Shown: positions 19,801 to 64,000, numbered from the stretch's first letter. The stretch is DNA of 64,000 nucleotides from an uncultured Actinomycetota bacterium (GCA_963771835.1 CAVYVA010000001.1:1013347-1077346); one strand, 5' to 3'. Made by a program: numbers and translations. Notes: generated from the sequence alone by a model not told the origin.

Positions 19801-20828
19801 CCGGGCTCGCCGGGGACCCGGTCGGCGAGCAGCGGCCGGGCCGGGTCCCAGGAAGTTCCGTCGCGGGCGTCCTGGCGACGCCTGGCGATCGCCGACAGCG
19901 CCTCGAGCACCACGCGGTTGCCGAGCGCGGCGGTGATGTCCGCGTGGTCGTACGGAGGGGACACCTCGACCACGTCCATCCCCACGACCGGCAGCTCGAG
20001 GGCGATCCGCCGCACGGCGTCGAGCAGCTGGCGCGCGGACAGGCCGCCGGGTTCCGGGGTCCCCGTCCCCGGCGCGTGCCCCGGGTCGCACACGTCGATG
20101 TCGACGGACAGGAAGACGCCGTCGCACTCGTCGGTGGCGATCGCGAACGCGTCGGTCAGGCACCGGTCCAGCCCGCGGGTCCCGATCTCGGTCATCTCGA
20201 AGGAACGCATCCCCTGCTCGGCCATCCAGTCGAGGACCTCCGGCGGCGGCCAGTAGCCGCGCAGGCCGACCTGCAGGAACCGGTCGCCGCGCACCGCCCC
20301 GGACTCGATGAGCAGCCGCATCGGCTGCCCGTGCCCGATGAGCGAGCCGAACTCGATCTTCCCCGTGTCGGCGTGGGCGTCGAAGTGGATCAGGCTGATC
20401 CGGCCCCAGCCGAGGGCCCGCGCGACGCCGGTGGCGTTCGGCCAGGTGACCGTGTGGTCGCCGCCCAGCACGACCGGGATGGCCCCCGCGCGGGCGACCT
20501 TCTCGACCTCGACCTCGAGCGCGGCGCACGCGGTGGCCGCGTCGCCGGAGAACATCTCGACGTCGCCTGCGTCGACCACCCGCAGGTCCTGCAGGCCGTC
20601 GGTGCGCAGGGCGAGGCTGGGACGCGACCCGTCGTGCGCGAGGTAGTCGGTCATCCGGATCGCCTGGGGTCCGAACCGGGCGCCGGAGCGGTACGACGTG
20701 CCGCCGTCGAACGGCGCGCCGATCACCACGACGTCGGCGCCGGCGAACGAGTCGGGTGCGTCGAGGTCGCACCGGTCGACGCCCAGGAAGGTGATGTCCG
20801 GGCCGTACTGGCCTCCGTAGCGAGCCAC
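19797..20828 (-). CDS. speB: agmatinase (ureohydrolase family)
   Basis: From GTG 20828: GAPFDGGTSYRSGARFGPQAIR, LGGDHTVTWP, IHFDAHADTG, SVDIDVCDPGHAPGTGTPEPGGL, MDVVEVSPPYD. Confidence 0.88.
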   Translation of the reverse strand: MARYGGQYGPDITFLGVDRCDLDAPDSFAGADVVVIGAPFDGGTSYRSGARFGPQAIRMTDYLAHDGSRPSLALRTDGLQDLRVVDAGDVEMFSGDAATACAALEVEVEKVARAGAIPVVLGGDHTVTWPNATGVARALGWGRISLIHFDAHADTGKIEFGSLIGHGQPMRLLIESGAVRGDRFLQVGLRGYWPPPEVLDWMAEQGMRSFEMTEIGTRGLDRCLTDAFAIATDECDGVFLSVDIDVCDPGHAPGTGTPEPGGLSARQLLDAVRRIALELPVVGMDVVEVSPPYDHADITAALGNRVVLEALSAIARRRQDARDGTSWDPARPLLADRVPGEPG

Positions 20829-20945
20829 GGCGGGCAGCCTAGTGCTCCCGGGCCGGCCGGCGGCTCCCCGCGCCGCGGACGGGCTCGGGCGGTCCCGGGC
20901 CGTAAGACCCTGTCGGCAGCCGGCGCAGGCGCGAAGAGTCGGCCC

Positions 20946-22283
20946 ATGACCGCCCCGTCGCGTGCGCCCGCCCGGGCCTTCCACGTCATGGCGAAGCCGA
21001 CGGGCGCCGTCTGCAACCTGGACTGCGAGTACTGCTACTTCCTGTCGAAGGAGACGCTGTACCCCGGGAGCGACTTCCGGATGAGCCCGCAGGTCCTCGA
21101 GGAGTACGTCCGGCAGATGCTGGCCGCCCACGACGGTGCCGACGAGGTGGTGGTCGCCTTCCAGGGCGGGGAGCCGACCATGATGGGCCTGGACTTCTTC
21201 CGGCGGGCCCTCGAGCTCGAGCGGCGGTTCGCGCGGCCCGGGCAGCGCATCCTCAACACGATCCAGACCAACGGCACGCTGCTGGACGACCAGTGGGGGT
21301 CGTTCCTGCACGACAACGCCTTCCTGGTCGGGCTGTCGATCGACGGACCGCGCGAGATGCACGACGCGTACCGGGTCGACAAGGGCGGCAAGCCCACGTT
21401 CGACCGCGTCCTGCGCGGGCTGGACGTCCTTCGTCGGCACCGGGTCGACTGGAACGCGCTGACCACCGTCAACGCCGCGAACGGCGACGACGGTCGTGCG
21501 GTGTACCGCTTCCTGCGCGACGAGCTCGGCGCGACGTTCGTCCAGCTCATCCCGATCGTGGAGCGGGTCACGCCGGAGCTCTTGCCGCTCGCCGAGGCGG
21601 GCTGGGGCGAGCGGGCGGGCCACCGGCCGCTGTACCGGCAGGACGGCGACCGGGTGACGCACCGGACAGTCGGGCCGCAGCAGTTCGGCCGCTTCCTCGT
21701 CGACGTGTTCGAGGAGTGGGTACGGCACGACGTGGGCGACGTCTTCGTGCAGATGTTCGACACGGCACTGGGCCACTGGCTCGGGTACGACCAGGTCGGC
21801 ATGTGCGTGCACGCGCGCACCTGCGGCACCGGGCTCGCGCTGGAACACAACGGCGACGTCTACTCGTGCGACCACTACGTGGAGCCCGACTACCTGCTCG
21901 GGAACATCGCGGGCGGGCGCCGGCTGCTCGACCTCGTCGGGTCACGGCGCCAGCTCGCCTTCGGGACGGCCAAGCTCGACTCGCTCCCGCGGTACTGCCG
22001 CAGCTGCGACGTGCGCTTCGCCTGCAACGGCGGCTGCCCCAAGGACAGGTTCGTCACGACGCCCGAGGGGGAGCCGGGGCTGCACTACCTGTGCGAGGGC
22101 TATCAGCTGTTCTTCCGGCACGTCGACGAACCGATGCGGATCATGGCCGACCTGTTCCGGCAGGGCCGCGACGTGAGCGGTGTGATGGCGTGGTTCGCGA
22201 AGGGTGACGCCGCGCGTGCGGCGACCGACTCCTGCACGTGCGGCAGCGGCCTCGAGTGGGGCCGCTGCCACGATGCGCCGTAG
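20946..22283 (+). CDS. anaerobic sulfatase-maturating enzyme (radical SAM/SPASM) with a C-terminal SEC-C-like motif
   Basis: FHVMAKPTGAVCNLDCEYCYF (CxxxCxxC), FQGGEPTMMG, and SPASM cysteines (CDHYV..., RYCRSCDVRFACNGGCPKDR). The C-terminus is CTCGSGLEWGRCH at 22233-22271. Confidence 0.9.
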   Translation: MTAPSRAPARAFHVMAKPTGAVCNLDCEYCYFLSKETLYPGSDFRMSPQVLEEYVRQMLAAHDGADEVVVAFQGGEPTMMGLDFFRRALELERRFARPGQRILNTIQTNGTLLDDQWGSFLHDNAFLVGLSIDGPREMHDAYRVDKGGKPTFDRVLRGLDVLRRHRVDWNALTTVNAANGDDGRAVYRFLRDELGATFVQLIPIVERVTPELLPLAEAGWGERAGHRPLYRQDGDRVTHRTVGPQQFGRFLVDVFEEWVRHDVGDVFVQMFDTALGHWLGYDQVGMCVHARTCGTGLALEHNGDVYSCDHYVEPDYLLGNIAGGRRLLDLVGSRRQLAFGTAKLDSLPRYCRSCDVRFACNGGCPKDRFVTTPEGEPGLHYLCEGYQLFFRHVDEPMRIMADLFRQGRDVSGVMAWFAKGDAARAATDSCTCGSGLEWGRCHDAP

Positions 22284-22316
22284 CGCTGGAGCACCTCGCG
22301 CCGTGAGCGCTGGCCC

Positions 22317-24614
22317 TCACTGCGCCGCCAGCACGATCGACCACATCACGGCCATGTTGCCGGCCACGCTGGACGTCGCCGAGAGTCCTCCCGCGGTGCC
22401 CACGCCGACCGGTCCCCCACTGTCGCCGGACAGCGACGTGATCCGACCGCTGCCGGTGCCGACCGACTGCAGCCGACGGGTCACCCCCGTGGGAGCGGTC
22501 CAGCCGGTGCCGGTCCCGGTCTTGTCCGCCCAGTACGACACCAACCAGCCGGCAGGCGACGTCGCGGGCACGGTGGGTGTGCGGTGGCTCGCGGAGGTGC
22601 TCGTCTCGGTCGCGACCGCGAAGGCCTGGATCGGCGAGCCCGCCGTGCCCGAGTAGGCGAGCAGCTGCACGTCGGTCTTCGTCGTCGCCGTCACGGTCAC
22701 GGTGACGGCCGAGCCGGGGTCGGTGGCGGTGGCGACCCGCCACCAGACGGCCGACTGGAGCGTCCCATCGGTCGTGGTCTGCAGCCGCGTCCAACCGGTC
22801 GGGGCGCCCAGGGTCGTGGCAGTGCGGTTGGCGGACACCAGGAGCAGCAGGGCGTCGCCGGCGTGCACGGCGGCCGGTACCGTGACCGTCGCCTTCGTGG
22901 CGTTGACCGTCTTCGCGACGCCGGCCCGGTAGGACACGGCCGAGGGCGACCCGACCACCACCGTCCGGGTCGCCGTGCCCGTGGCGTACTCGTTGTCGGT
23001 CACGGTGAGGACCACCTGGTAGCTGCCGGCACTCGCGTACGTGTGGGTCGGCGCCACACCCGTCCCGGTCTGGCCGTCGCCGAACTGCCACCGGTAGCCC
23101 ACGATGGTCCCGTCGTCGTCGTACGACCCGGCCGCGGAGAAGGTGCAGGTCAGCCCGGTGCACACGGGGGTGGCGATCACCGCCGTCGGCGGGCTCTCGA
23201 CCTCGCCGTCGGACACCACGCACTGCTGCCCGACGCAGCTGCGCAGGGCGTTCAGCCGCGCAATCCACAAGGCCTCGTCGGGGTCGTTGGCCGTGCTCGC
23301 GTCGCCCAGCAGGTTGACCAGCTGGTCGGGGTCGTTGGTCAGGTCGTAGTACTCACGACCCGTGACCGCCCCCGTGGTCGGGTCGTACCACCGGGTGTAC
23401 TGCACGGTCGGTGTGACCACCGACGACCAGGGTGGCAGCGGCGAGTCGAGGCTCCGCCCGTACTCGACGAGGACCTGCGAGCGCCGCGTGCCGGACAGGA
23501 TCGACGTCCCGTCCAGCGGGTCCTTGAGCGTCGGTGTCACGCCCGCTGCGTCGAGCAGCGTGGGCAGCATGTCCACGCCGCTGACGAGGCGGTCGTCGGT
23601 GGTGCCGGCCGGGACGTGTCCCGGCCACCGCATGATCAGCGTGGTGCTCTCGCTGTCGGTGTAGGGGAAACGCTTGTCGAGGATGCGGTGCTCGCCCCAC
23701 AGGTAGCCGTTGTCAGAGGTGAAGATCGCCAGCGTGTTCTGGTCCTCGCCCAGGCGGGTGATCTCGTCGGTGATCTTGCCCACCATGTCGTCCACCGACA
23801 TCAGGGTCCGCAGCTGGTCGGTGCGCCGTTGCTGCGCGGTGGCCACGTTCAGCAGCGGCCGCGACCGCACGTTGGACGGCTTGTCCGACACGTCAGCCTC
23901 GTTGAAGCTCGGCGGCGGCGTCCAGCTCGGCACGGCTGCGTTGGCGTACTTGGCTTCCGCGGTGAAGGGGTCGTGCGGCGCTTGGGGCGCCACGTAGATG
24001 AGCCACGGCTTCGCGTCGTCGGCCTTGAACGTGTTCAGGTCCTGGACGACCTGGTCGCCCAGGACGGTGGAGTAGTAGCCGGCGATCTTGCGCACCGTGC
24101 CGTCGACGTTGTACGACACGTCGTTGTAGCCACCGGTGGTGAACAGCCAGTGGTCCCAGTTCTTCGGGCTGTTCGACAGCGGCACGGTGTTCATGAACTT
24201 GCCGGCCATCGCCGTCGAGTAGCCGGCCGCGTGCAGGTACCCCTGGAAGGTGGCCGACTGGTCCATCGCTGCGATCTGGGCGTCGAGACCGTTTCCGGTG
24301 ATGCCGTTGTTGTGCCCGTACCGGCCGGTGAAGAGGCTGCCCCGCGACGGTGAGCACAGCGGCGTGCTCGGGTAGTTGTGCGTGTACGTCTGGCCCTGCT
24401 GCTGGAACCAGCTGCGCACGTGCGGCATCACGTCGAGCGTGCCCGCGGACGGCCGCATGTCGTCGAGGTTGATCAACAGGATGTTGGGCTGGACATTGGC
24501 CGCGGCCTCGGCCCGCGGCGCGAGGGTGCTGGGCCCGGCCCCCAGAGCGACCACCGCCCCGGTCGACACGGCCACCATCGCTGCCGTCCAGGGCGCTCGC
24601 TTCATCGCCGACAC
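22317..24614 (-). CDS. secreted Cys-type sulfatase with PKD domain and an uncharacterised C-terminal module
   Basis: 765 aa. Signal peptide, then NILLINLDDMR and STPLCSPSRGSLFTGRY (the CxPxR formylglycine motif; Cys codon at 24356-24354). A PKD-like segment follows (CTFSAAGSYDDDGTIVGYRWQFGDGQTGTG...YQVVLTVTDN, ~22950-23189), then ~210 aa rich in Thr/Ser/Gly/Ala with no recognised motif. Confidence 0.9.
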   Translation of the reverse strand: MSAMKRAPWTAAMVAVSTGAVVALGAGPSTLAPRAEAAANVQPNILLINLDDMRPSAGTLDVMPHVRSWFQQQGQTYTHNYPSTPLCSPSRGSLFTGRYGHNNGITGNGLDAQIAAMDQSATFQGYLHAAGYSTAMAGKFMNTVPLSNSPKNWDHWLFTTGGYNDVSYNVDGTVRKIAGYYSTVLGDQVVQDLNTFKADDAKPWLIYVAPQAPHDPFTAEAKYANAAVPSWTPPPSFNEADVSDKPSNVRSRPLLNVATAQQRRTDQLRTLMSVDDMVGKITDEITRLGEDQNTLAIFTSDNGYLWGEHRILDKRFPYTDSESTTLIMRWPGHVPAGTTDDRLVSGVDMLPTLLDAAGVTPTLKDPLDGTSILSGTRRSQVLVEYGRSLDSPLPPWSSVVTPTVQYTRWYDPTTGAVTGREYYDLTNDPDQLVNLLGDASTANDPDEALWIARLNALRSCVGQQCVVSDGEVESPPTAVIATPVCTGLTCTFSAAGSYDDDGTIVGYRWQFGDGQTGTGVAPTHTYASAGSYQVVLTVTDNEYATGTATRTVVVGSPSAVSYRAGVAKTVNATKATVTVPAAVHAGDALLLLVSANRTATTLGAPTGWTRLQTTTDGTLQSAVWWRVATATDPGSAVTVTVTATTKTDVQLLAYSGTAGSPIQAFAVATETSTSASHRTPTVPATSPAGWLVSYWADKTGTGTGWTAPTGVTRRLQSVGTGSGRITSLSGDSGGPVGVGTAGGLSATSSVAGNMAVMWSIVLAAQ

Positions 24615-24775
24615 CTCTCACCACTCGCGAACCTCGCGGACGGCGGACGTGACCCCGGCGTCCCGGTGACTCGAGCGGAGTCGTGCGGGAGAAGGCCGTC
24701 ACCCGTGCTTGCGATCAGTCAACGCGCGCGCCTGCACCCCTCGGTAGGGACCAACGACCCTCCTTCGCCGGGCTC

Positions 24776-24810
24776 GCGACGAAGCCGGAGCTCAGACGTT
24801 CTGGGGGAAG
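24776..24810. repeat. attL: 35-bp direct repeat gcgacgaagccggagctcagacgttctgggggaag
   Basis: Identical base for base to 28227-28261; the flanking bases differ on both sides. Confidence 0.9.
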
Positions 24811-24902
24811 TGATGCGCACGAGCCGTGACAAGCGCGGCCAACAGACTCACAGCCTCTGACCTGCGCAAACATCGTTTGCTGGTTTTGACCGTCGTTGGT
24901 CG

Positions 24903-24933
24903 TTTGCGGACGTCTTGCGGACTTTCTGCGGAC
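24903..24933. promoter_or_regulatory. three phased 9-bp direct repeats (tttGCGGAC / cttGCGGAC / tctGCGGAC), candidate arm-type/RDF binding sites
   Basis: The copies at 24903-24911, 24914-24922 and 24925-24933 are spaced exactly 11 bp start to start, about 95 bp inside attL. A related cgtttgc sits at 24874. Confidence 0.4.
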
Positions 24934-24968
24934 TGGTACACCTCAGGACCGGCTCCGGTAGCGATGGT

Positions 24969-25005
24969 GGGGCTGCGCCGCCCCCCCCGGACCCGGCGCA
25001 GCCCC
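24969..25005. other. perfect 12-bp inverted repeat (GGGGCTGCGCCG ... CGGCGCAGCCCC) with a 13-nt C-rich loop
   Basis: Arms at 24969-24980 and 24994-25005 are exact reverse complements. It lies in non-coding island DNA between the phased repeats and the first island ORF. Confidence 0.5.
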
Positions 25006-25133
25006 TCGGGACCAGACGGTGTCGTTCTGCAGCAGGCACGCGGGGTCGGTCCGGACGAATTCGGCTGTCGGGGGGATACCGAGTCACCGAGCGTGCCGAC
25101 CCGGTTGCCCAGAGCCCGTGAGACAGTCCGAAG

Positions 25134-25352
25134 ATGGCTGCCTACCGGACGTTCCCCGAGCCGGTCGAGGTGACGGTGACGATCACCCAACCCAGATACC
25201 CGGTCGCCGGCAGCTTTCCCGGGTTCGCCTACGGCTGGCGGGGGCAGCGGGTGTACGTCAAGTTCCGCACCGGCGTCGGTGAGAAGCGGTTCGGGTGGAT
25301 GGAGGCCGAGCGGGTCAGGCGCTCCGCTTCCGGCTCCCAGCCAGCTCAATAA
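25134..25352 (+). CDS. hypothetical small protein (72 aa), island-borne
   Basis: ATG to TAA. Third-position G/C is strongly enriched (about 63 of 72 codons by hand count), which favours real coding. No recognised motif (..GFAYGWRGQRVYVKFRTGVGEKRFGWMEAERV..). Confidence 0.45.
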   Translation: MAAYRTFPEPVEVTVTITQPRYPVAGSFPGFAYGWRGQRVYVKFRTGVGEKRFGWMEAERVRRSASGSQPAQ

Positions 25353-25404
25353 CCGGCATTATGTGCGGCGGGGAAGTGCATGCTGCGACCGGTAGGGAGC
25401 ATCC

Positions 25405-26204
25405 ATGAGTTCTCAATGGAGTGCCGGGCGTCGGTTTGAGGGCCGCGTGGCGTTGGTGACCGGGGCCGGCGGGACTCTTGGTGGGGCCATCGCACGAGGA
25501 CTTGGCCGCGAGGGTGCCCGAGTCGTTGTGGGTTACCGGTCATCGAAGGCGGCCGCGGAGGCGACGTCACGTGACATCACTGACGCTGGCGGTGAGGCGA
25601 TGCTGTGCCACCTCGACGTCACCGTGCCGGACACCGTGGATGACTGCCTTCGCTCGGTCGTGGACCGGTGGGACAGGGTCGATGTTCTCGTCAACACCGC
25701 TGGACGGCTGGAGTCGGTCGACACCGTGCACCTCGATTCCCTCGATCTCGCGGATGCGGCGGCGCTGCTCGACGTCGACGTGCTGGGCACGCTGCGGATG
25801 TGCCAGGCCGTGCTACCGGCGATGCCGAACCGGACGGGTGCGATCCTCAACTTGTCCAGCACGTACGGCAATGGCGTGAACCCGGACAACCCGATCAACT
25901 TCGTCCCGGTCGCGTACTGCGCGGCGAAGGGCGCCGTTCGTGGGCTCACGGTGGCGATGGCCCGTGAGCTAGCCCGGGGATTCGGGTCAACGCTCTCGCG
26001 CCGGGGCCGATCTCGGGCCAGTGGGAGCAGGAGTGGGACGTCTCCGGCGGTCAGATCGAGGAGGCGCTTCGGATGATCCCGCTTGGGCGGTTCGGGCGCC
26101 CGGAGGAGATCGCCGAGACGGCGCTGTTCCTGCTGTCCGATGGCGCCGGTTTCATCACCGGACAGGTTGTGCATATGGATGCCGGCTGGCTGGCCCGTGA
26201 TTGA
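25405..26204 (+). pseudogene. short-chain dehydrogenase/reductase (SDR), one frame disruption as assembled
   Basis: VALVTGAGGTLGGAIA (TGxxxGxG), NTAG, and the active site YCAAKGAV. After MARELA (~25975) the conserved continuation (P)GIRVNALAPGPISGQW...GRFGRPEEIAETALFLLSDGAGFITGQVVHMDAGW is in the -1 frame, consistent with one missing base. Stop at 26202-26204. Confidence 0.8.
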
Positions 26205-26231
26205 ACCGCCTGGGCGAAGGAGGCGCAGCGC

Positions 26232-26597
26232 ATGAGCACTGACATCAACGACCTGAACGCCGTCCGGGAGGCGGTTCAACGGTACGTGGACGCCTGCACA
26301 AACGCCGATTCAGAGGCGCTGCGGTCCGCGCTGCACCCGGCGTTTCGGATGTACGGCATCGACACGTCGGACGAGGAGATCGCCATCACGGTCGACGAGT
26401 TCGTCGCCTGGGTCTCTGAGCGACAACGTCCGCTCGGCTACCGGGCCACGATCACCCACATCGAGATCACCGCGGACGTGGCCATGGCAACCCTGGTCGA
26501 GGAGAAGTACTACGACACCGACTACACCATCCACTTCTCGCTCATACGCTCGGGCGGCATGTGGCACATCGTGACGAAGACCTACAGCAGGGTGTAG
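26232..26597 (+). CDS. NTF2-like / SnoaL-like (putative lumazine-binding type) small protein
   Basis: 121 aa with the pattern typical of NTF2-fold proteins: AVREAVQRYVDACTNADSEALRSALHPAFRMYG...ITHIEITADVAMATLVEE...WHIVTKTY. Confidence 0.65.
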   Translation: MSTDINDLNAVREAVQRYVDACTNADSEALRSALHPAFRMYGIDTSDEEIAITVDEFVAWVSERQRPLGYRATITHIEITADVAMATLVEEKYYDTDYTIHFSLIRSGGMWHIVTKTYSRV

Positions 26598-26636
26598 TCC
26601 GAGTTGGGGGTGCCCCCGACGGTGCCGCTCCCGTCC

Positions 26637-26668
26637 CAATGCCCCCAGGGACGGGAGCGCACCTACCG
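26637..26668 (+). terminator. stem-loop after the NTF2-like gene (GCTCCCGTCCC-aatgccccca-GGGACGGGAGC)
   Basis: A perfect 11-bp inverted repeat starts 40 bp after the stop at 26597. There is no U-tract, as is common for actinobacterial hairpin terminators. Confidence 0.5.
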
Positions 26669-26898
26669 CCCAGCGTGGGGGTCGGGCGGTCCAAGTCTTG
26701 CTGTCGGCTCCCTCGACAACTGGCTAAAGCCTGTCACCGGACTGAGTCAGGACTGGCGGCCTGGTCGAACGGCCAACTGAGCACACAGAAGTGCCGTTCT
26801 GTTCGCCTGGCCGGGAGCCCTCGATCCGGCATTTCGTGAGGATCATGGTCCGAGCGTCCGGCATCTCGTGGGTTGGGGAGACGCGGCAGTCGCGCCGG

Positions 26899-27264
26899 TT
26901 AGGCGAAGTACTCGACCAAGCAGAACTCGTGCCCTTCGGGGTCGCGCATGATCACGACGATGCCGTCTTCGTAGTCATGCCGCTCGCCACTCCTCGAGCC
27001 ACCGAGCTCTTCCACACGGGCAACACTTGCCTCTATGTCGCTGGTCGCGATATCCAGATGGATCCGCACCTTGGTGGACTTCGGTTCGGGCACACGCTGG
27101 AACGTGAGTCTGGGGAGGGCGTCGTGGCGTGAACCGACTGTCGCCCACCCCGGATCGTGACCGTGCTCAGCCGACTTCGGCACTCCCAGGAGAAGGCTCC
27201 AGAAGGTCGCAAGACTTTCTGGGTCCGTGCAGTCGATCGTGACAGCAGTCCAGCGATGCGTCAT
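26899..27264 (-). CDS. VOC (glyoxalase/bleomycin-resistance/dioxygenase) family protein
   Basis: 121 aa: AVTIDCTDPESLATFWSLLLG...LTFQRVPEPKSTKVRIHLDIATSDIEASVARVEELGG...VVIMRDPEGHEFCL. Confidence 0.8.
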   Translation of the reverse strand: MTHRWTAVTIDCTDPESLATFWSLLLGVPKSAEHGHDPGWATVGSRHDALPRLTFQRVPEPKSTKVRIHLDIATSDIEASVARVEELGGSRSGERHDYEDGIVVIMRDPEGHEFCLVEYFA

Positions 27265-27339
27265 GGCGTTATCGTGCCACTCGGCTTGCGCCCCGGCCCC
27301 GCGCCTATGGGGCTTCCTCTCGTGCCCCGTCGATCGCCT

Positions 27340-27687
27340 TCAGTCATCCTCGATGTAACCCGTGCCGGGATCGATCATGCTCAGGAAGGCACGGATCTGA
27401 TCGCGGTGCTCCTCGCGCGACTGATTCGGAGGAGCGCTCGACACGAACCCGTAGCCCTGATTCGGCCCGCTCAGCCAGTCGTATGCCGTGCCGCCGCCCG
27501 CCGACAAGCGAAGAGCGAACAGCTCGCCGTCAACCTCGATGGTGAACAAGACCGATCCGGGCCGACCCTCGTCCGCAGGGCTCCACTCCACGTCGCGGAG
27601 CCTAGGCAACTTCGCACCGAAGTGCCGTTCTGTGCGTGGGCCGCACCGTAGGCCCAGGGGGGCGGGTTCACGACGGAACACGGCCAA
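27340..27687 (-). CDS. hypothetical small protein (real start probably the GTG at 27591)
   Basis: LFTIEVDGELFALRLSAGGGTAYDWLSGPNQGYGFVSSAP..HRDQIRAFLSMIDPGTGYIEDD. No recognised domain. The upstream part of the ORF crosses a repeat and looks non-coding. Confidence 0.4.
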   Translation of the reverse strand: MAVFRREPAPLGLRCGPRTERHFGAKLPRLRDVEWSPADEGRPGSVLFTIEVDGELFALRLSAGGGTAYDWLSGPNQGYGFVSSAPPNQSREEHRDQIRAFLSMIDPGTGYIEDD

Positions 27688-28307
27688 CCCCGCATGACCT
27701 CGAGGTGCTCGGGCTCGAGCGGGGTCACGTGGACTTCCTGCGGCGGACGCTGCGCGTAGAGCAGCAGGTCCAGCAGTCGCCCGGTGGCGTGGCCGCCGTG
27801 GTCCCGCCCAAGACCCGCTCCTCCTACCGCACGATCCCCCTCCCGCAGACCGTCTTGGACGAGCTGGCCGCTCACCTCGCGCGGCACCCGAACGAGGGCC
27901 TGCTGTTCCCCGGCGCCGACGGCGGACCCATCGTGCGGACTCGGTTCAACGACTCGGTCTGGCGGCCGGCGCTCAAGAAGGCCGGGGTCAGTGGCGTGAC
28001 GTTCCACGACCTGCGGCACTTCTACGCCTCTGCGCTCATCCGCGCCGGGCTGTCCGTCCGGGTCGTCGCGGACCGGCTCGGGCACGCGGATGCGTCGATG
28101 ACGCTCAACGTGTACGCGCACCTGTGGCCGGACGAGGAGGACCGCACCAGGTCCGCCGTGGACGAGTTCCTCGGCGCTCCCGCGGACTCCGTGCGGACTG
28201 ACGGACCCTCGCAGGGCCTCTCACCTGCGACGAAGCCGGAGCTCAGACGTTCTGGGGGAAGCCGAGGTTCAGGCCGCCGTGGCTGGGGTCGAGCCAGCGC
28301 GAGGTGA
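27636..28307 (+). pseudogene. tyrosine recombinase/integrase, C-terminal catalytic half only
   Basis: LEVLGLERGHVDFLRRTLRVEQQV...KTRSSYRTIPLPQTV...VTFHDLRHFYASALIRAGLSV..VADRLGHADASMTLNVYAHLW retains HxxR and the catalytic Tyr. The N-terminal core-binding domain and first catalytic Arg are absent, with an in-frame stop at 27603-27605. The ORF reads through attR. Confidence 0.8.
28227..28261. repeat. attR: second copy of the 35-bp direct repeat, overlapping the mmsA stop
   Basis: Identical to 24776-24810. On the minus strand it encodes the last five mmsA codons FPQNV plus TGA, followed by 16 bp downstream. Confidence 0.9.
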
Positions 28308-29757
28308 TGACCTTGCCCCGGGTGAAGAAGTGCACACCCTCGGTCCCGTGCGCGTGGGTGTCCCCGAACAGTGAGGACTTCCACCCGCCGAACGAGTAGT
28401 ACGCCATCGGCACCGGGATCGGCACGTTGATGCCGACCATCCCGACCTCGACCTCGTTCTGGTAGCGCCGCGCCGCCCCGCCGTCGTTGGTGAAGATGGC
28501 GGTGCCGTTGCCGTAGGGGTGGTCGTTGACCATCTTGAGCGCATCGTCGTACGAGTCGACCCGAACCACCGACAGCACCGGCCCGAAGATCTCGTCCGAG
28601 TAGATGCTCATGTCCGTCGTGACGTGGTCGAAGAGCGTCGGGCCGAGCCAGTAGCCGCCCGCCGCGCCGTCCGGCTCGACGTCACGACCGTCGACGACGA
28701 GGCTCGCGCCGGCGTCGACCCCGGCCTGGACGTAGCCGGCGACCTTGTCGCGGTGCACCGCGGTGACCAGCGGGCCCATGTCGGCGCCACGACGGCCGTC
28801 GCCGGTCCGCAAGGTGCCGATCCGCTCGGCGATCTTGCCGACCAGCTCGTCGGCGACCGGCTCCACCACGACGAGCGCGGAGATGGCCATGCAGCGCTCC
28901 CCCGCCGACCCGAAGCCGGCGTTCACCGCGGCGTCCGCGGCGAGGTCCAGGTCTGCGTCGGGCAGGACGACCATGTGGTTCTTCGCGCCGCCGAGCGCCT
29001 GGACCCGCTTGCCGGCCTTGGTCCCGGTCTCGTACACGTAGCGGGCGATGGGGGTCGAGCCGACGAAGGAGATGCTCTTGACGTCGGGGTGGGTGAGCAG
29101 CCGGTCCACGGCCTCCTTGTCGCCGTGCACCACGTTGAACACGCCCTCGGGCAGCCCGGCCTCGGCCCACAGCTCGGCGACGAAGTTCACGGCGCTCGGG
29201 TCCTTCTCGCTGGGCTTGACGACGACCGTGTTGCCGCACGCGATCGCGATCGGGAAGAACCACATCGGGACCATCGCCGGGAAGTTGAACGGGGAGATGA
29301 TCCCGACCACGCCGAGCGGCTGGCGGATCGAGTACACGTCGACCTTGGTGGACACGCCCTCCGAGAAGCCGCCCTTGAGCAGGTGCGGGATGCCGCACGC
29401 GAACTCGACGACCTCGAGCCCGCGGGTCACCTCGCCGAGGGCGTCGGACAGGACCTTGCCGTGCTCGGCGGTGATGAGCGCGGCCAGCTCTTCCTTGCGC
29501 TCGTTGAGCAGCTCCCGGAAGGCGAACAGCACCTGGGTGCGCCGGGACAACGACGACCCGCGCCAGTCCGCGAACGCCTCCTTGGCGGCCGCGACCGCCT
29601 CGTCCATCACCGCTGCCGTGGCGAAGTCGACCAGGCCCGAGCGCTCGCCGGTGGCGGGGTCGAAGACCTCGCCCTGCCGCTCGGCCACGCCGCCGTAGGG
29701 CTTGCCGCCGATCCAGTGCGTGATGTGCTTGGTCGCTGCCGAGGTGGTCTCGCCCAT
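28243..29757 (-). CDS. mmsA: CoA-acylating methylmalonate-semialdehyde dehydrogenase
   Basis: 504 codons from ATG 29757: ITHWIGGKP, SPFNFPAMVPMWFFPIAIACGNTVVVKPSE, FVGSTPIA, GFGSAGERCMA, INVPIPVPMAYYSFGGWKSSLFGD, GLNLGFPQNV. Confidence 0.93.
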   Translation of the reverse strand: MGETTSAATKHITHWIGGKPYGGVAERQGEVFDPATGERSGLVDFATAAVMDEAVAAAKEAFADWRGSSLSRRTQVLFAFRELLNERKEELAALITAEHGKVLSDALGEVTRGLEVVEFACGIPHLLKGGFSEGVSTKVDVYSIRQPLGVVGIISPFNFPAMVPMWFFPIAIACGNTVVVKPSEKDPSAVNFVAELWAEAGLPEGVFNVVHGDKEAVDRLLTHPDVKSISFVGSTPIARYVYETGTKAGKRVQALGGAKNHMVVLPDADLDLAADAAVNAGFGSAGERCMAISALVVVEPVADELVGKIAERIGTLRTGDGRRGADMGPLVTAVHRDKVAGYVQAGVDAGASLVVDGRDVEPDGAAGGYWLGPTLFDHVTTDMSIYSDEIFGPVLSVVRVDSYDDALKMVNDHPYGNGTAIFTNDGGAARRYQNEVEVGMVGINVPIPVPMAYYSFGGWKSSLFGDTHAHGTEGVHFFTRGKVITSRWLDPSHGGLNLGFPQNV

Positions 29758-62094: not shown

Positions 62095-63144
62095 TCAGTC
62101 GCGCTGCTCGGCCAGCTTGCCGCGCAGCTGCAGAACGGCCTTCGTGTGCATCTGGCAGATCCGCGACTCGGTCACGCCCAGGACCTGGCCGATCTCGGCG
62201 AGGGTGAGGCCCTCGTAGTAGTAGAGCGTCACCACGATCTTCTCGCGCTCGGGCAGGGTGTTGATCGCCTTCGCGAGCAGGTACTTGGTCTCCTCGGACT
62301 CGAACGCCGCGACCGGGTCCTCGGCCCTGGTGTCCTCGAGGGTGTCGACCAGGCTGAGCTTGTCGCCCTTCTCGCCGCCCACGTTGAGCAGCTCGTCCAG
62401 CGCGACCACGTTGACGAACGACACCTGGCTGAAGATCGCGTGCAGGTCCTCGAGGCGGATCCCCATCTGGTCGGCGACCTCGGCCTCGGTGGGCGTGCGG
62501 TGCAGCTGCCCCTCCAGCGCGGCGTACGCCTTCTCCACCTCGCGCGCCTTGTAGCGGACCGAGCGCGGGATCCAGTCGATCGCGCGCAGCTCGTCGATGA
62601 TCGCGCCGCGGATGCGGCTGATCGCGTACGTCTCGAACTTGATGGCCCGCTCGAGGTCGAACTTCTCGATCGCGTCGATCAGGCCGAAGATGCCGTACGA
62701 CACCAGGTCGGCCTGCTCGATGTTCGGCGGAAGCCCCACGCCGACGCGGCCGGCGACGTACTTGACCAGCGGCGAGTAGTGCAGGATCAGCCGCTCCCGC
62801 AGCTGCGCGTCACCGCCGGCCTTGAAGCCCTCCCACAGCTCGCGGAGCGCGGCGGCCGCCTCGGCGGGATCGGGCGCCAGGTCTTCGTCGGTCACCTCGA
62901 CGACAGCGGCCACGGCCGCGTCCGGCTCTGCGGCCGCTGCTGCCGACTCGGCGACGGGCTCCGTGGCGTCTTCGGCGGGGGCGTCGCCGGAGTTCGCCGC
63001 TGCGGCGCGCGAGCCGGACGCGGCCCGACCGGTCGCGGGCGCGGCTGAGCGCTTGACCGCCGGGCGGCGGCCGGCCGCGACCCGATGCCGGCTGCTCCAC
63101 GACCGCGAGCTGCTCGTCCTCGGACGCGACGGCGGCGCCGTCAC
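62095..63144 (-). CDS. whiG: FliA/WhiG-type RNA polymerase sigma factor; the N-terminal ~95 aa of the ORF are low-complexity and the start is uncertain
   Basis: [45 protein letters not shown] (region 2), [14 protein letters not shown] (region 3), [41 protein letters not shown] (region 4). Confidence 0.85.
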
Positions 63145-64000
63145 GCTCGGGGGTGCGCCTGCTCATAGGTGGCCTTGAGCCTCTCGACGGAGACATGAGT
63201 GTAGATCTGTGTTGTCGCGAGCGTAGCGTGACCCAGTATCTCCTGGACCGAACGAAGGTCCGCGCCACCCTCGAGAAGATGCGTCGCTGCCGAGTGCCGC
63301 AGTCCGTGCGGACCCAGGTCCGGGGCGCCGGGCACGTCGGCCAGCCGGGCGTGGACCAGCCGACGTACCGCCCGCTGGTCCAGCCGGCCGCCGCGGGAGC
63401 CCAGGAACATCGCCGGCCCGCCAGTCCCTCCGACCAGTCGCCGACGCCCGAGGTCGAGCCACTCCTGGAGGGCGCGCGCCGCCGGCAGCCCGAGGGGGAC
63501 GGTGCGCTCCTTGCGGCCCTTGCCGAGCACACGCACCACGCGCCGCCCGGGGTCGTAGTCGTCGACGTCCAGCCCGACCAGCTCGCCGACGCGGATCCCG
63601 CTCGCGTAGAGCAGCTCCAGGATCGCCCGGTCGCGCAGCCCGACAGCCGAGCCGTCGTCGGCGCCGACCGCCGCGACGTCCATGAGGGCGCGGGCCTGGT
63701 CCTGGCGGAGCACCCCGGGGAGGCTGCGGTGCGGACGGGCCGAACCCAGCAGCAGGCCCGGGTCGGCCGCCAGCAGGCCGCGTCGCCGGCACCAGGCCGT
63801 GAACGCCTTGGCCGACGCAGCCCGGCGGGCCACGCTGGACCGCGCTGAACCGCCGGCGGCCAGTCCGCCGAGCCAGCTGCGCAGCTCGCGGACGTCCAGC
63901 TCCCCCGGACTCGTCAGGCCATGACCGGCCGCGTGCCCGAGCAGGCTGCCGGCATCCCGCACGTACGCACGCACGGTGTGCGGGCTGAGGCCGCGCTCGG
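63141..64000 (-). CDS. xerC: tyrosine recombinase XerC (N-terminus beyond the right edge)
   Basis: ...[16 protein letters not shown]..., [76 protein letters not shown]. Confidence 0.9.

Follow-up and report, generated by a model that had tools for sequence, protein, structure and literature searches.

The DNA analysed here is a single stretch of 64 kb (the window) from an uncultured Actinomycetota bacterium; window coordinates are used throughout, and the loci compared with it are labelled L001, L081, L193 and so on. Our subject is a 3,451-bp interval at the 3' end of mmsA, measured from the left to the right copy of a perfect 35-bp direct repeat and containing a truncated tyrosine integrase, which we read as the likely remnant of a site-specific integrative element. 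The 35-mer, GCGACGAAGCCGGAGCTCAGACGTTCTGGGGGAAG, occurs exactly twice in the 64 kb with 0 mismatches (Table 1), and the bases outside it are unlike each other at both edges, so that the perfect repeat with differing flanks described in a sequence-only reading of this DNA stands. A third copy is absent from the window at up to 3 mismatches, where 0 matches are expected (100 shuffles), and a scan at up to 10 mismatches revealed no degenerate third attachment (att) site in the window, including the neighbourhood of the agmatinase and sulfatase genes.

The right copy lies across the end of an intact gene, and the same reading was correct in assigning to it the last five codons and the stop of mmsA together with 16 bp of downstream DNA; the product scores 704.8 bits against TIGR01722, the methylmalonate-semialdehyde dehydrogenase model, for which the cut-off is 448.5, and its LGFPQNx-stop C-terminus is kept in 79 loci. 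At the left copy the same gene end is an orphan, joined only to a spurious 185-aa open reading frame (ORF) on the minus strand that ends in HHFPQNV. A duplicated gene end that leaves mmsA intact supports the proposal that the element brought its own replacement 3' end. The 35-mer was not found in 80 mmsA loci of other species (up to 6 mismatches), and searches of viral contigs and of metagenome contigs returned no exact match; it is therefore not a dispersed genomic repeat, the origin that the sequence-only reading had set against its own proposal. No tRNA gene is predicted in the 64-kb window.

Directly beside the right copy, and reading into it, lies the fragment of a tyrosine integrase, of which the C-terminal catalytic domain is all that remains: 27636-28226 on the plus strand matches PF00589 over positions 40-168 of 172, and the alignment of full-length relatives to the fragment begins at 27702, possibly 27663. 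Missing from the fragment are the first catalytic Arg and about 125 residues at the N-terminus (the TGLRQGE box of its relatives precedes the point at which homology starts), and the N-terminal part is absent from every frame upstream; retained are the K, the H-x-x-R, the second H and the Y. A complete recombinase, with N-terminal DNA-binding domains and the full R-K-H-R-H-Y set, is thus not encoded here, and the locus qualifies only as a decayed member of the tyrosine-integrase elements. The nearest phage integrases are those of Rhodococcus phage Sleepyhead (44% identical) and of cluster-F-type mycobacteriophages (39%). A PHROGs search of the interior matched the integrase alone, and among the interior ORFs profile searches that included PHROGs recognised no excisionase (xis), replication (rep) or transfer (tra) gene. 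This agrees with the earlier reading, which had placed an integrase fragment next to attR, had recognised no gene for replication, transfer or excision, and had considered the element decayed and immobile.

The integrase frame has no stop before the core (the 35-bp sequence) and stays open through it to 28307, 27 codons past the core start and antisense to mmsA, while in a reconstructed circular attP, the attachment site of the free element, it would meet a stop six codons beyond the core (…GGSDAHEP; 28200-28307 joined to 24811-24828). Integration thus alters the C-terminus of the integrase, which is probably incidental; we ascribe no function to the read-through, because the closest relative of this integrase, described below, has a stop before the core. 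A second integrase-like gene in the window, at 63141-63974 on the minus strand, was considered as a mobile element and dismissed: it is the housekeeping XerC, about 30% identical to the integrase family, and its neighbours are rpsB and a sigma-factor gene (62095-63144).

Both sides of the core carry short phased repeats. Copies of GCGGAC lie at 11-bp phase, two on one side and three on the other, and are candidate arm-type integrase sites by their arrangement; TGCGGACT has 4 matches in the 64 kb, 4 of 4 inside the element. A further box, CCTCTSACCTGCG, flanks the core of the reconstructed attP, with one copy to either side and both in the same direction, and may be an additional protein-binding site. 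Beyond the left-hand repeats is a hairpin with a perfect 12-bp stem, which possibly served as a terminator after the integrase gene in the circular form. The phased repeats that had been noticed beside attL are thus real and present in both arms, and the strong hairpin noticed with them is real too, though modestly unusual in its folding energy (z = -2.1).

Between the arms lie five small cargo genes, where the sequence-only reading had counted four or five small genes unrelated to the flanks; its orphan ORF of 85-115 aa is a conserved 83-aa gene (ORF83), and its short-chain dehydrogenase (SDR) gene proved to be frameshifted. The break is near 25972-25977, within a CCCGGGG run, and the C-terminal part (25977-26204), in another frame, corresponds to positions 161-231 of the 237 of the SDR profile. 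An independent Logan contig (run ERR11592903) shows the gene broken in the same way; this may be a genuine pseudogene, or the homopolymer run may have been misread. ORF72 is a real gene of a small family, with 14 homologous proteins at 71-93% identity. The AlphaFold2 model of ORF83 has five strands and one helix and no match in the PDB (E > 0.5), which leaves a role of ORF83 as excisionase or regulator unsupported. A TAGGCT box stands 7 nt ahead of its GTG start (window 27592-27615), and its homologues show the same box at the same distance from a GTG or ATG start (L192 3520-3544; L191 5975-5986; L193/L194 9975-10001), a position that suggests leaderless transcripts for ORF83 and its homologues. 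Rfam gave no match in 24400-28500, and a search of a plasmid collection returned generic SDR and VOC similarity only.

The interior is also set apart by composition, as had been claimed for its visibly lower G+C: windowed G+C is 0.670 in the element against 0.726 for the window, which places it in the lowest 2% of 3.4-kb windows. G+C at third codon positions (GC3) is 0.74-0.89 in the five cargo genes and 0.92 in the integrase fragment, compared with 0.95-0.98 in the flanking genes for the sulfatase, MmsA, an FAD oxidoreductase and a permease.

Table 1. Features of the interval at the 3' end of mmsA (window coordinates).
Feature	Coordinates	Strand	Evidence and remarks
Left 35-bp copy (attL core)	24776-24810		24792-24810 is an orphan mmsA stop with the last five codons, on the minus strand
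CCTCTGACCTGCG box, P' arm, candidate protein-binding site	24853-24865	+	Read from the sequence
Three GCGGAC repeats, P' arm, candidate arm-type integrase sites	24906-24935	+	Repeat finding; 11-bp phasing
G+C-rich hairpin	24969-25004		12-bp perfect stem; -25.4 kcal/mol, z = -2.1
ORF72, small gene (cargo)	25134-25352	+	GC3 0.86; no Pfam or PHROG match
SDR gene (cargo), split by a 1-nt frameshift	25405-26204	+	PF00106 on 25405-25974
NTF2/SnoaL-like gene (cargo)	26232-26597	+	PF12893, 1.3e-19
Left motif copy	26773-26849	-	Core ACAGAACGGCACTTCTGTGTG at 26782-26802; nhmmer 4.1e-5; position weight matrix 28-29 bits
VOC/glyoxalase-fold gene (cargo)	26899-27264	-	PF18029, 1.4e-30; GC3 0.74
ORF83 (cargo), conserved 83-aa actinobacterial protein	27340-27591	-	94% DNA identity to L193/L194 over 27335-27630
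Right motif copy	27601-27655	-	Core ACAGAACGGCACTTCGGTGCG at 27613-27633; nhmmer 1.4e-7; position weight matrix 31 bits
Tyrosine-integrase fragment, C-terminal catalytic domain only	27663-28226	+	PF00589
Two GCGGAC repeats in the integrase 3' end, P arm, candidate arm-type sites	28182-28200	+	Repeat finding; 11 bp apart
CCTCTCACCTGCG box, direct repeat of CCTCTGACCTGCG	28214-28226	+	Read from the sequence; just before the right core
Right 35-bp copy (attR core)	28227-28261		16 bp downstream of mmsA, stop, last five codons (FPQNV) and 1 base
mmsA, target gene, intact	28243-29757	-	TIGR01722

From these features we conclude, with good though not complete confidence, that the core-to-core interval is what is left of a site-specific integrative element inserted at the end of mmsA. 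The locus has what is expected of an attL/attR pair: a sharp-edged repeat, an integrase that runs into one of its copies, repeats resembling arm-type sites, foreign codons and a duplicated gene end. In the mechanism that we propose, a phage-type tyrosine integrase would have joined attP to an attB, the attachment site of the host, that consisted of the last 19 nt of mmsA and the 16 nt downstream, by an integration of the lambda type. As rebuilt from the two junctions, attP would have run from the 3' end of the integrase gene, with its two arm repeats, through the CCTCTCACCTGCG box into the 35-bp core; 42 nt further on would have stood the second box, followed by three arm repeats and the hairpin. 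The orphan mmsA end would then have been left at attL and the gene restored at attR from the copy that the element brought; mmsA would be intact at attR because attP carried its own copy of the gene end. Afterwards the integrase would have lost its first ~125 codons, among them those for the arm-binding and core-binding domains and for the first catalytic Arg, and any genes for excision, replication or transfer would also have gone, leaving the five cargo genes. With its integrase broken the element would be unable to move by itself; both att sites are intact, so that a related integrase might still mobilise it in trans.

The closest relative of the integrase, protein P0002, is encoded on L081, a 2.5-kb Logan contig of run SRR15130126 from another metagenome, and is 82% identical to the fragment in protein sequence and also degenerate, with an internal deletion. 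The DNA of L081 is 79.5% identical to the window over 27828-28238, a match that reaches 12 nt into the core, and it retains the GCGGAC pair of 28182-28200 (as GCGGACTCAGCGCGGAC) and, at the matching place, a counterpart of the box before the core (GCGTCTGACCTGC); the CCTCTSACCTGCG box is conserved there (L081 1364-1378). Thirty-five nucleotides past the stop of this integrase is an orphan CTTCCCGCAGAACACCTGA (FPQNT-stop) with no mmsA gene attached to it, 18 nt of which exactly match the mmsA ends of several species. This mmsA-like piece begins at the same nucleotide as the duplication in the window, and behind it lie 24 nt with a palindrome and, further on, a convergent gene, an arrangement that resembles the native region downstream of mmsA. 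By its sequence, L081 appears to hold a sister element that reached the same 19 nt of mmsA independently, in a different host, and this is the strongest support for reading the repeat as the product of an attP and an attB.

The closest available genome, that of another uncultured Actinomycetota bacterium (L001), carries an mmsA that is 83% identical in the order permease, FAD oxidoreductase, mmsA, agmatinase, and does not have the element. Its mmsA-agmatinase spacer measures 75 nt (L001 9491-9566), and its agmatinase, 74% identical, has a TAGGCT box and a GTG start as in the window. In the window the agmatinase is 7.4 kb from mmsA (20780-28243), with the element, a sulfatase and a radical-SAM maturase between them. 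The sulfatase and the maturase (~20990-24614) are also absent from L001, despite their host-like GC3 (0.95 for the sulfatase); judged by this comparison, they too appear to be lineage-specific insertions at the mmsA-agmatinase spot.

Several observations weigh against an integrative element at this site. In L081 the mmsA end is sense to the integrase (1340-1440), and in the window it is antisense (28180-28265); one conserved attP cannot yield both orientations. No empty attB from a close relative was found, L001 being too distant (83%) and without the sulfatase flank as well, and the empty site that the sequence-only reading had predicted, with the DNA upstream of the sulfatase meeting the mmsA stop, was not found either, nor was an intact sister element with the same core; neither an occupied nor an empty site with this core is present in the 80 mmsA loci, the viral contigs or the metagenome contigs. 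Two of the five GCGGAC copies are part of a coding sequence (ADSVRT) and could owe their conservation to constraint on the protein, and the arm-site role of these repeats is one that we infer. Finally, no interior gene is a typical mobile-element gene.

The interior had been treated as one homogeneous unit, and in this the sequence-only reading needs amending, because ORF83 and the VOC gene form a block separately bounded by two copies of a short motif. A repeat finder returned a 22-nt pair, 26784-26805 and 27615-27636, alike at 20 of 22 positions, that brackets the two genes; written out, the motif is AACGGCACTTCGGTGC, and its consensus is (T/G)AACGGCAC-NTCN-GTGC, with a AATGCCGGATC box about 25 nt upstream in some copies. 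Such a box lies upstream of the left copy on the minus strand. The right copy overlaps the ORF83 promoter, at the place where a -35 element would stand, and is 8-47 nt from the point at which the integrase is truncated. The arrival or rearrangement of ORF83 and the VOC gene, which lie directly at this breakpoint, probably truncated the integrase. By position weight matrix (PWM), the window has only these two copies, the left half of the element (ORF72, SDR, NTF2) has none, and control loci totalling 1.18 Mb contain 22 weak matches. Viral contigs gave 101 single hits, all at chance level, and no arrays. Degenerate copies picked by eye, at the ORF72 stop and between ORF83 and the VOC gene, did not score even with gaps and were dropped. 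The idea that the 22-nt pair is a private duplication that truncated the integrase was also abandoned, since the pair belongs to a dispersed family.

That family is represented in two ENA metagenome contigs. L193 (20 kb, 1-20252), from a related genome, holds 24 copies, 23 of them on one strand and all intergenic, and over at least 18.5 kb nearly every gap between genes has one, irrespective of gene orientation; Rfam has no match in this locus. L193 and L194 share one 1.1-kb stretch that is 98.8% identical (L194 9955-11084) and otherwise have unrelated surroundings, and the shared stretch spans one motif copy to the middle of the next. The homology of ORF83 to these contigs (94% in DNA) stops inside the right motif copy. 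L081 has one copy (689-742), about 110 nt upstream of the integrase on the opposite strand and with an extended CAGCCCGC box, in the same position relative to the integrase as in the window.

We considered what the motif might be. As a promoter for an extracytoplasmic function (ECF) sigma factor (GAAC-N16-GTT) the pair was rejected, the -10 part being unconserved among the copies, and a structured attC-like hairpin was rejected for want of a conserved fold: folded together, 11 copies yield a consensus that has a 4-bp hairpin and shows no covariation, and individual folds are inconsistent and have unremarkable z-scores. Repetitive extragenic palindromic (REP) sequences and bacterial interspersed mosaic elements (BIMEs) are short imperfect palindromes outside genes, present in many copies per genome and associated with a REP transposase. 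The motif resembles them in being a short imperfect palindrome that is intergenic, often just past stop codons, and present in many copies; it is unlike them in lying almost always in one orientation and in dense clusters (24 in the 20 kb of L193, 2 in the 64-kb window, 22 weak matches in 1.18 Mb). The motif represents an undescribed repeat family and could be a recombination site, an operator or a REP-like element.

On one rival explanation the locus is or was an integron-like platform for gene capture, whose units are bounded by AACGGCAC-N4-GTGC and would be inserted and excised by this recombinase or a similar one, and for which the 35-bp repeat is the outer boundary only. The two copies in the window have the same orientation and lie just 5' of the integrase and divergent from it, an adjacency that recurs in L081; together with the uniform orientation of the L193 array, the single motif-to-motif unit shared by L193 and L194, and the cassette-typical genes found between copies (GNAT, glyoxalase, SRPBCC, RibD_C), this speaks for gene capture. 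The integrase itself is of an ordinary phage type, however, with 37.6 bits against a cut-off of 265 for TIGR02249 and 35.8 bits against 435 for PRK15417, and its match to these models is confined to the generic C-terminal region. Nor is an integrase of this family present in the L193 or L194 loci, the enzyme in L194 being Xer-like and unrelated. The motif lacks an attC-like fold, and the left half of the element is without it; distant homologues of ORF83 (about 80% identical in DNA) keep a copy in their promoter region, as would suit a regulatory site. The adjacency of integrase and motif, moreover, is known from two loci only, both with degenerate integrases. On balance we regard an integron-like origin of the locus as improbable.

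Actinobacteria have so far yielded no complete integron (PMC4889954, PMC9024848). With integron cassette arrays and attC clusters lacking an integrase (PMC4889954, PMC9024848) the motif-bounded units alone share gene-sized units and a site of uniform orientation. They are further alike in that one unit is common to unrelated contexts, that breakpoints fall inside the site, and that a divergent tyrosine recombinase is at hand in the window and in L081. The site here, however, is a 21-nt conserved sequence with a 4-bp hairpin and not a structured attC, and the recombinase is not IntI; the locus is therefore not an integron.

Another idea is that the motif is a recombination site delimiting mobile, gene-sized units in an actinobacterial lineage, with the phage-type integrase lineage as the shuffling enzyme, a role proposed for it because a motif copy stands just upstream of the integrase in both known loci. 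This would amount to an integron-like system of gene capture with a different recombinase and a different kind of site. The integrase truncation, which coincides with the outer edge of a motif copy, is consistent with such a site, as are the uniform orientation of the copies in L193 and the unit common to L193 and L194, yet the idea is a long shot.

The integrative-element reading also has to be set against a 35-bp duplication that arose with no site-specific recombination, through an illegitimate insertion with a long target duplication or a local rearrangement, so that the integrase would be there by coincidence. Such an origin is in keeping with the ordinary metabolic or small genes of the interior and with neither an empty site nor a circular form having been seen. 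Against it speak the contact of the integrase 3' end with the repeat, the restriction of the phased repeats to the two arms, and L081, where an integrase is again joined to an mmsA end at the same nucleotide, a double coincidence that would be very unlikely; we give this origin very little weight. An assembly artefact, in which strain variants or unrelated contigs were joined at a common 35-mer, is scarcely credible: the source, a contig of 1.35 Mb, appears to be metagenome-derived and no independent assembly was found across either junction, but such a join would not yield two 35-mers bracketing an integrase whose frame runs into one copy, the SDR-NTF2 interior recurs in an independent Logan contig, and synteny on both sides is coherent with L001.

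For the remnant of a site-specific element at the end of mmsA, the wider integrase family supplies a context. Some 100 further relatives, 27-75% identical, were compared. None of these has an mmsA end beside its integrase, and none, at 27% identity or more, has a tRNA gene within 400 nt downstream of it; the sole relative with tRNA genes nearby, L101, is 26.6% identical. The family thus appears, from these gene neighbourhoods, not to use tRNA targets. A protein-coding attB, which the sequence-only reading had called unusual, is therefore normal for integrases of this family. The relatives are found in phage-like or satellite-like islands beside protein-coding genes. On a 14,950-bp contig of JGI metagenome 3300041966 an integrase with 60% identity lies against the 3' end of a deoC-family gene and terminates a 9-kb block that encodes HTH_17, Prim-Pol, a 609-aa protein, HNH and an S78 protease. 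The block may illustrate the form of an intact relative: a small element resembling a phage satellite, at a different protein-coding gene. Another relative is a full-length integrase of 306 aa beside capsid fragments and an Mrr nuclease. A survey of convergent ORFs downstream of the related integrases was too noisy in high-G+C DNA and was not used.

The arrangement at mmsA has known parallels. Among lambdoid prophages and cryptic elements, phage 21 and e14, the latter a defective remnant, integrate in icd of E. coli and carry a replacement for the gene end. They have in common with the present locus a tyrosine integrase, a core that covers the last codons of a housekeeping or metabolic gene, a substitute 3' end that keeps the gene functional and an orphan end at the distal junction; here the phylum and the target gene are other, the duplicated coding part is shorter (19 nt, with 16 nt downstream), and phage genes are lacking. 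The integrative and conjugative elements of actinomycetes (AICEs) come from the same phylum and have an integrase gene adjoining attP and a core that duplicates the 3' end of the target gene. They usually target tRNA genes, however, and carry genes for replication and for FtsK/TraB-like transfer, none of which was found in the element; with neither these genes nor a tRNA target, it is not an AICE. PAISt of Streptomyces turgidiscabies integrates at the 3' end of bacA, likewise a protein-coding gene (PMC4057263). It is large, mobile and conjugative and uses an 8-bp palindrome, whereas the element here is 3.4 kb, immobile and has a 35-bp core (PMC4057263). Reported insertions of ICEBs1 in the mmsA of B. 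subtilis are at a secondary site inside the gene and are unrelated, and we do not count them as a precedent (PMC3715440).

Taken by itself, the remnant is an ordinary kind of genomic island, and what it adds is mmsA as a further member of the protein-coding genes with attachment sites at their 3' ends. Around it, one actinobacterial integrase family appears to avoid tRNA genes, and the mmsA-agmatinase junction stands out as variable within the lineage. The opposite orientation of the sister element is also of interest, and the motif-bounded units are the only part that is potentially novel. Should the motif be an operator or a REP-like element, it would still constitute an undescribed repeat family without an Rfam match; should it prove to be a recombination site, it would point to a cassette-type exchange of genes in Actinobacteria.

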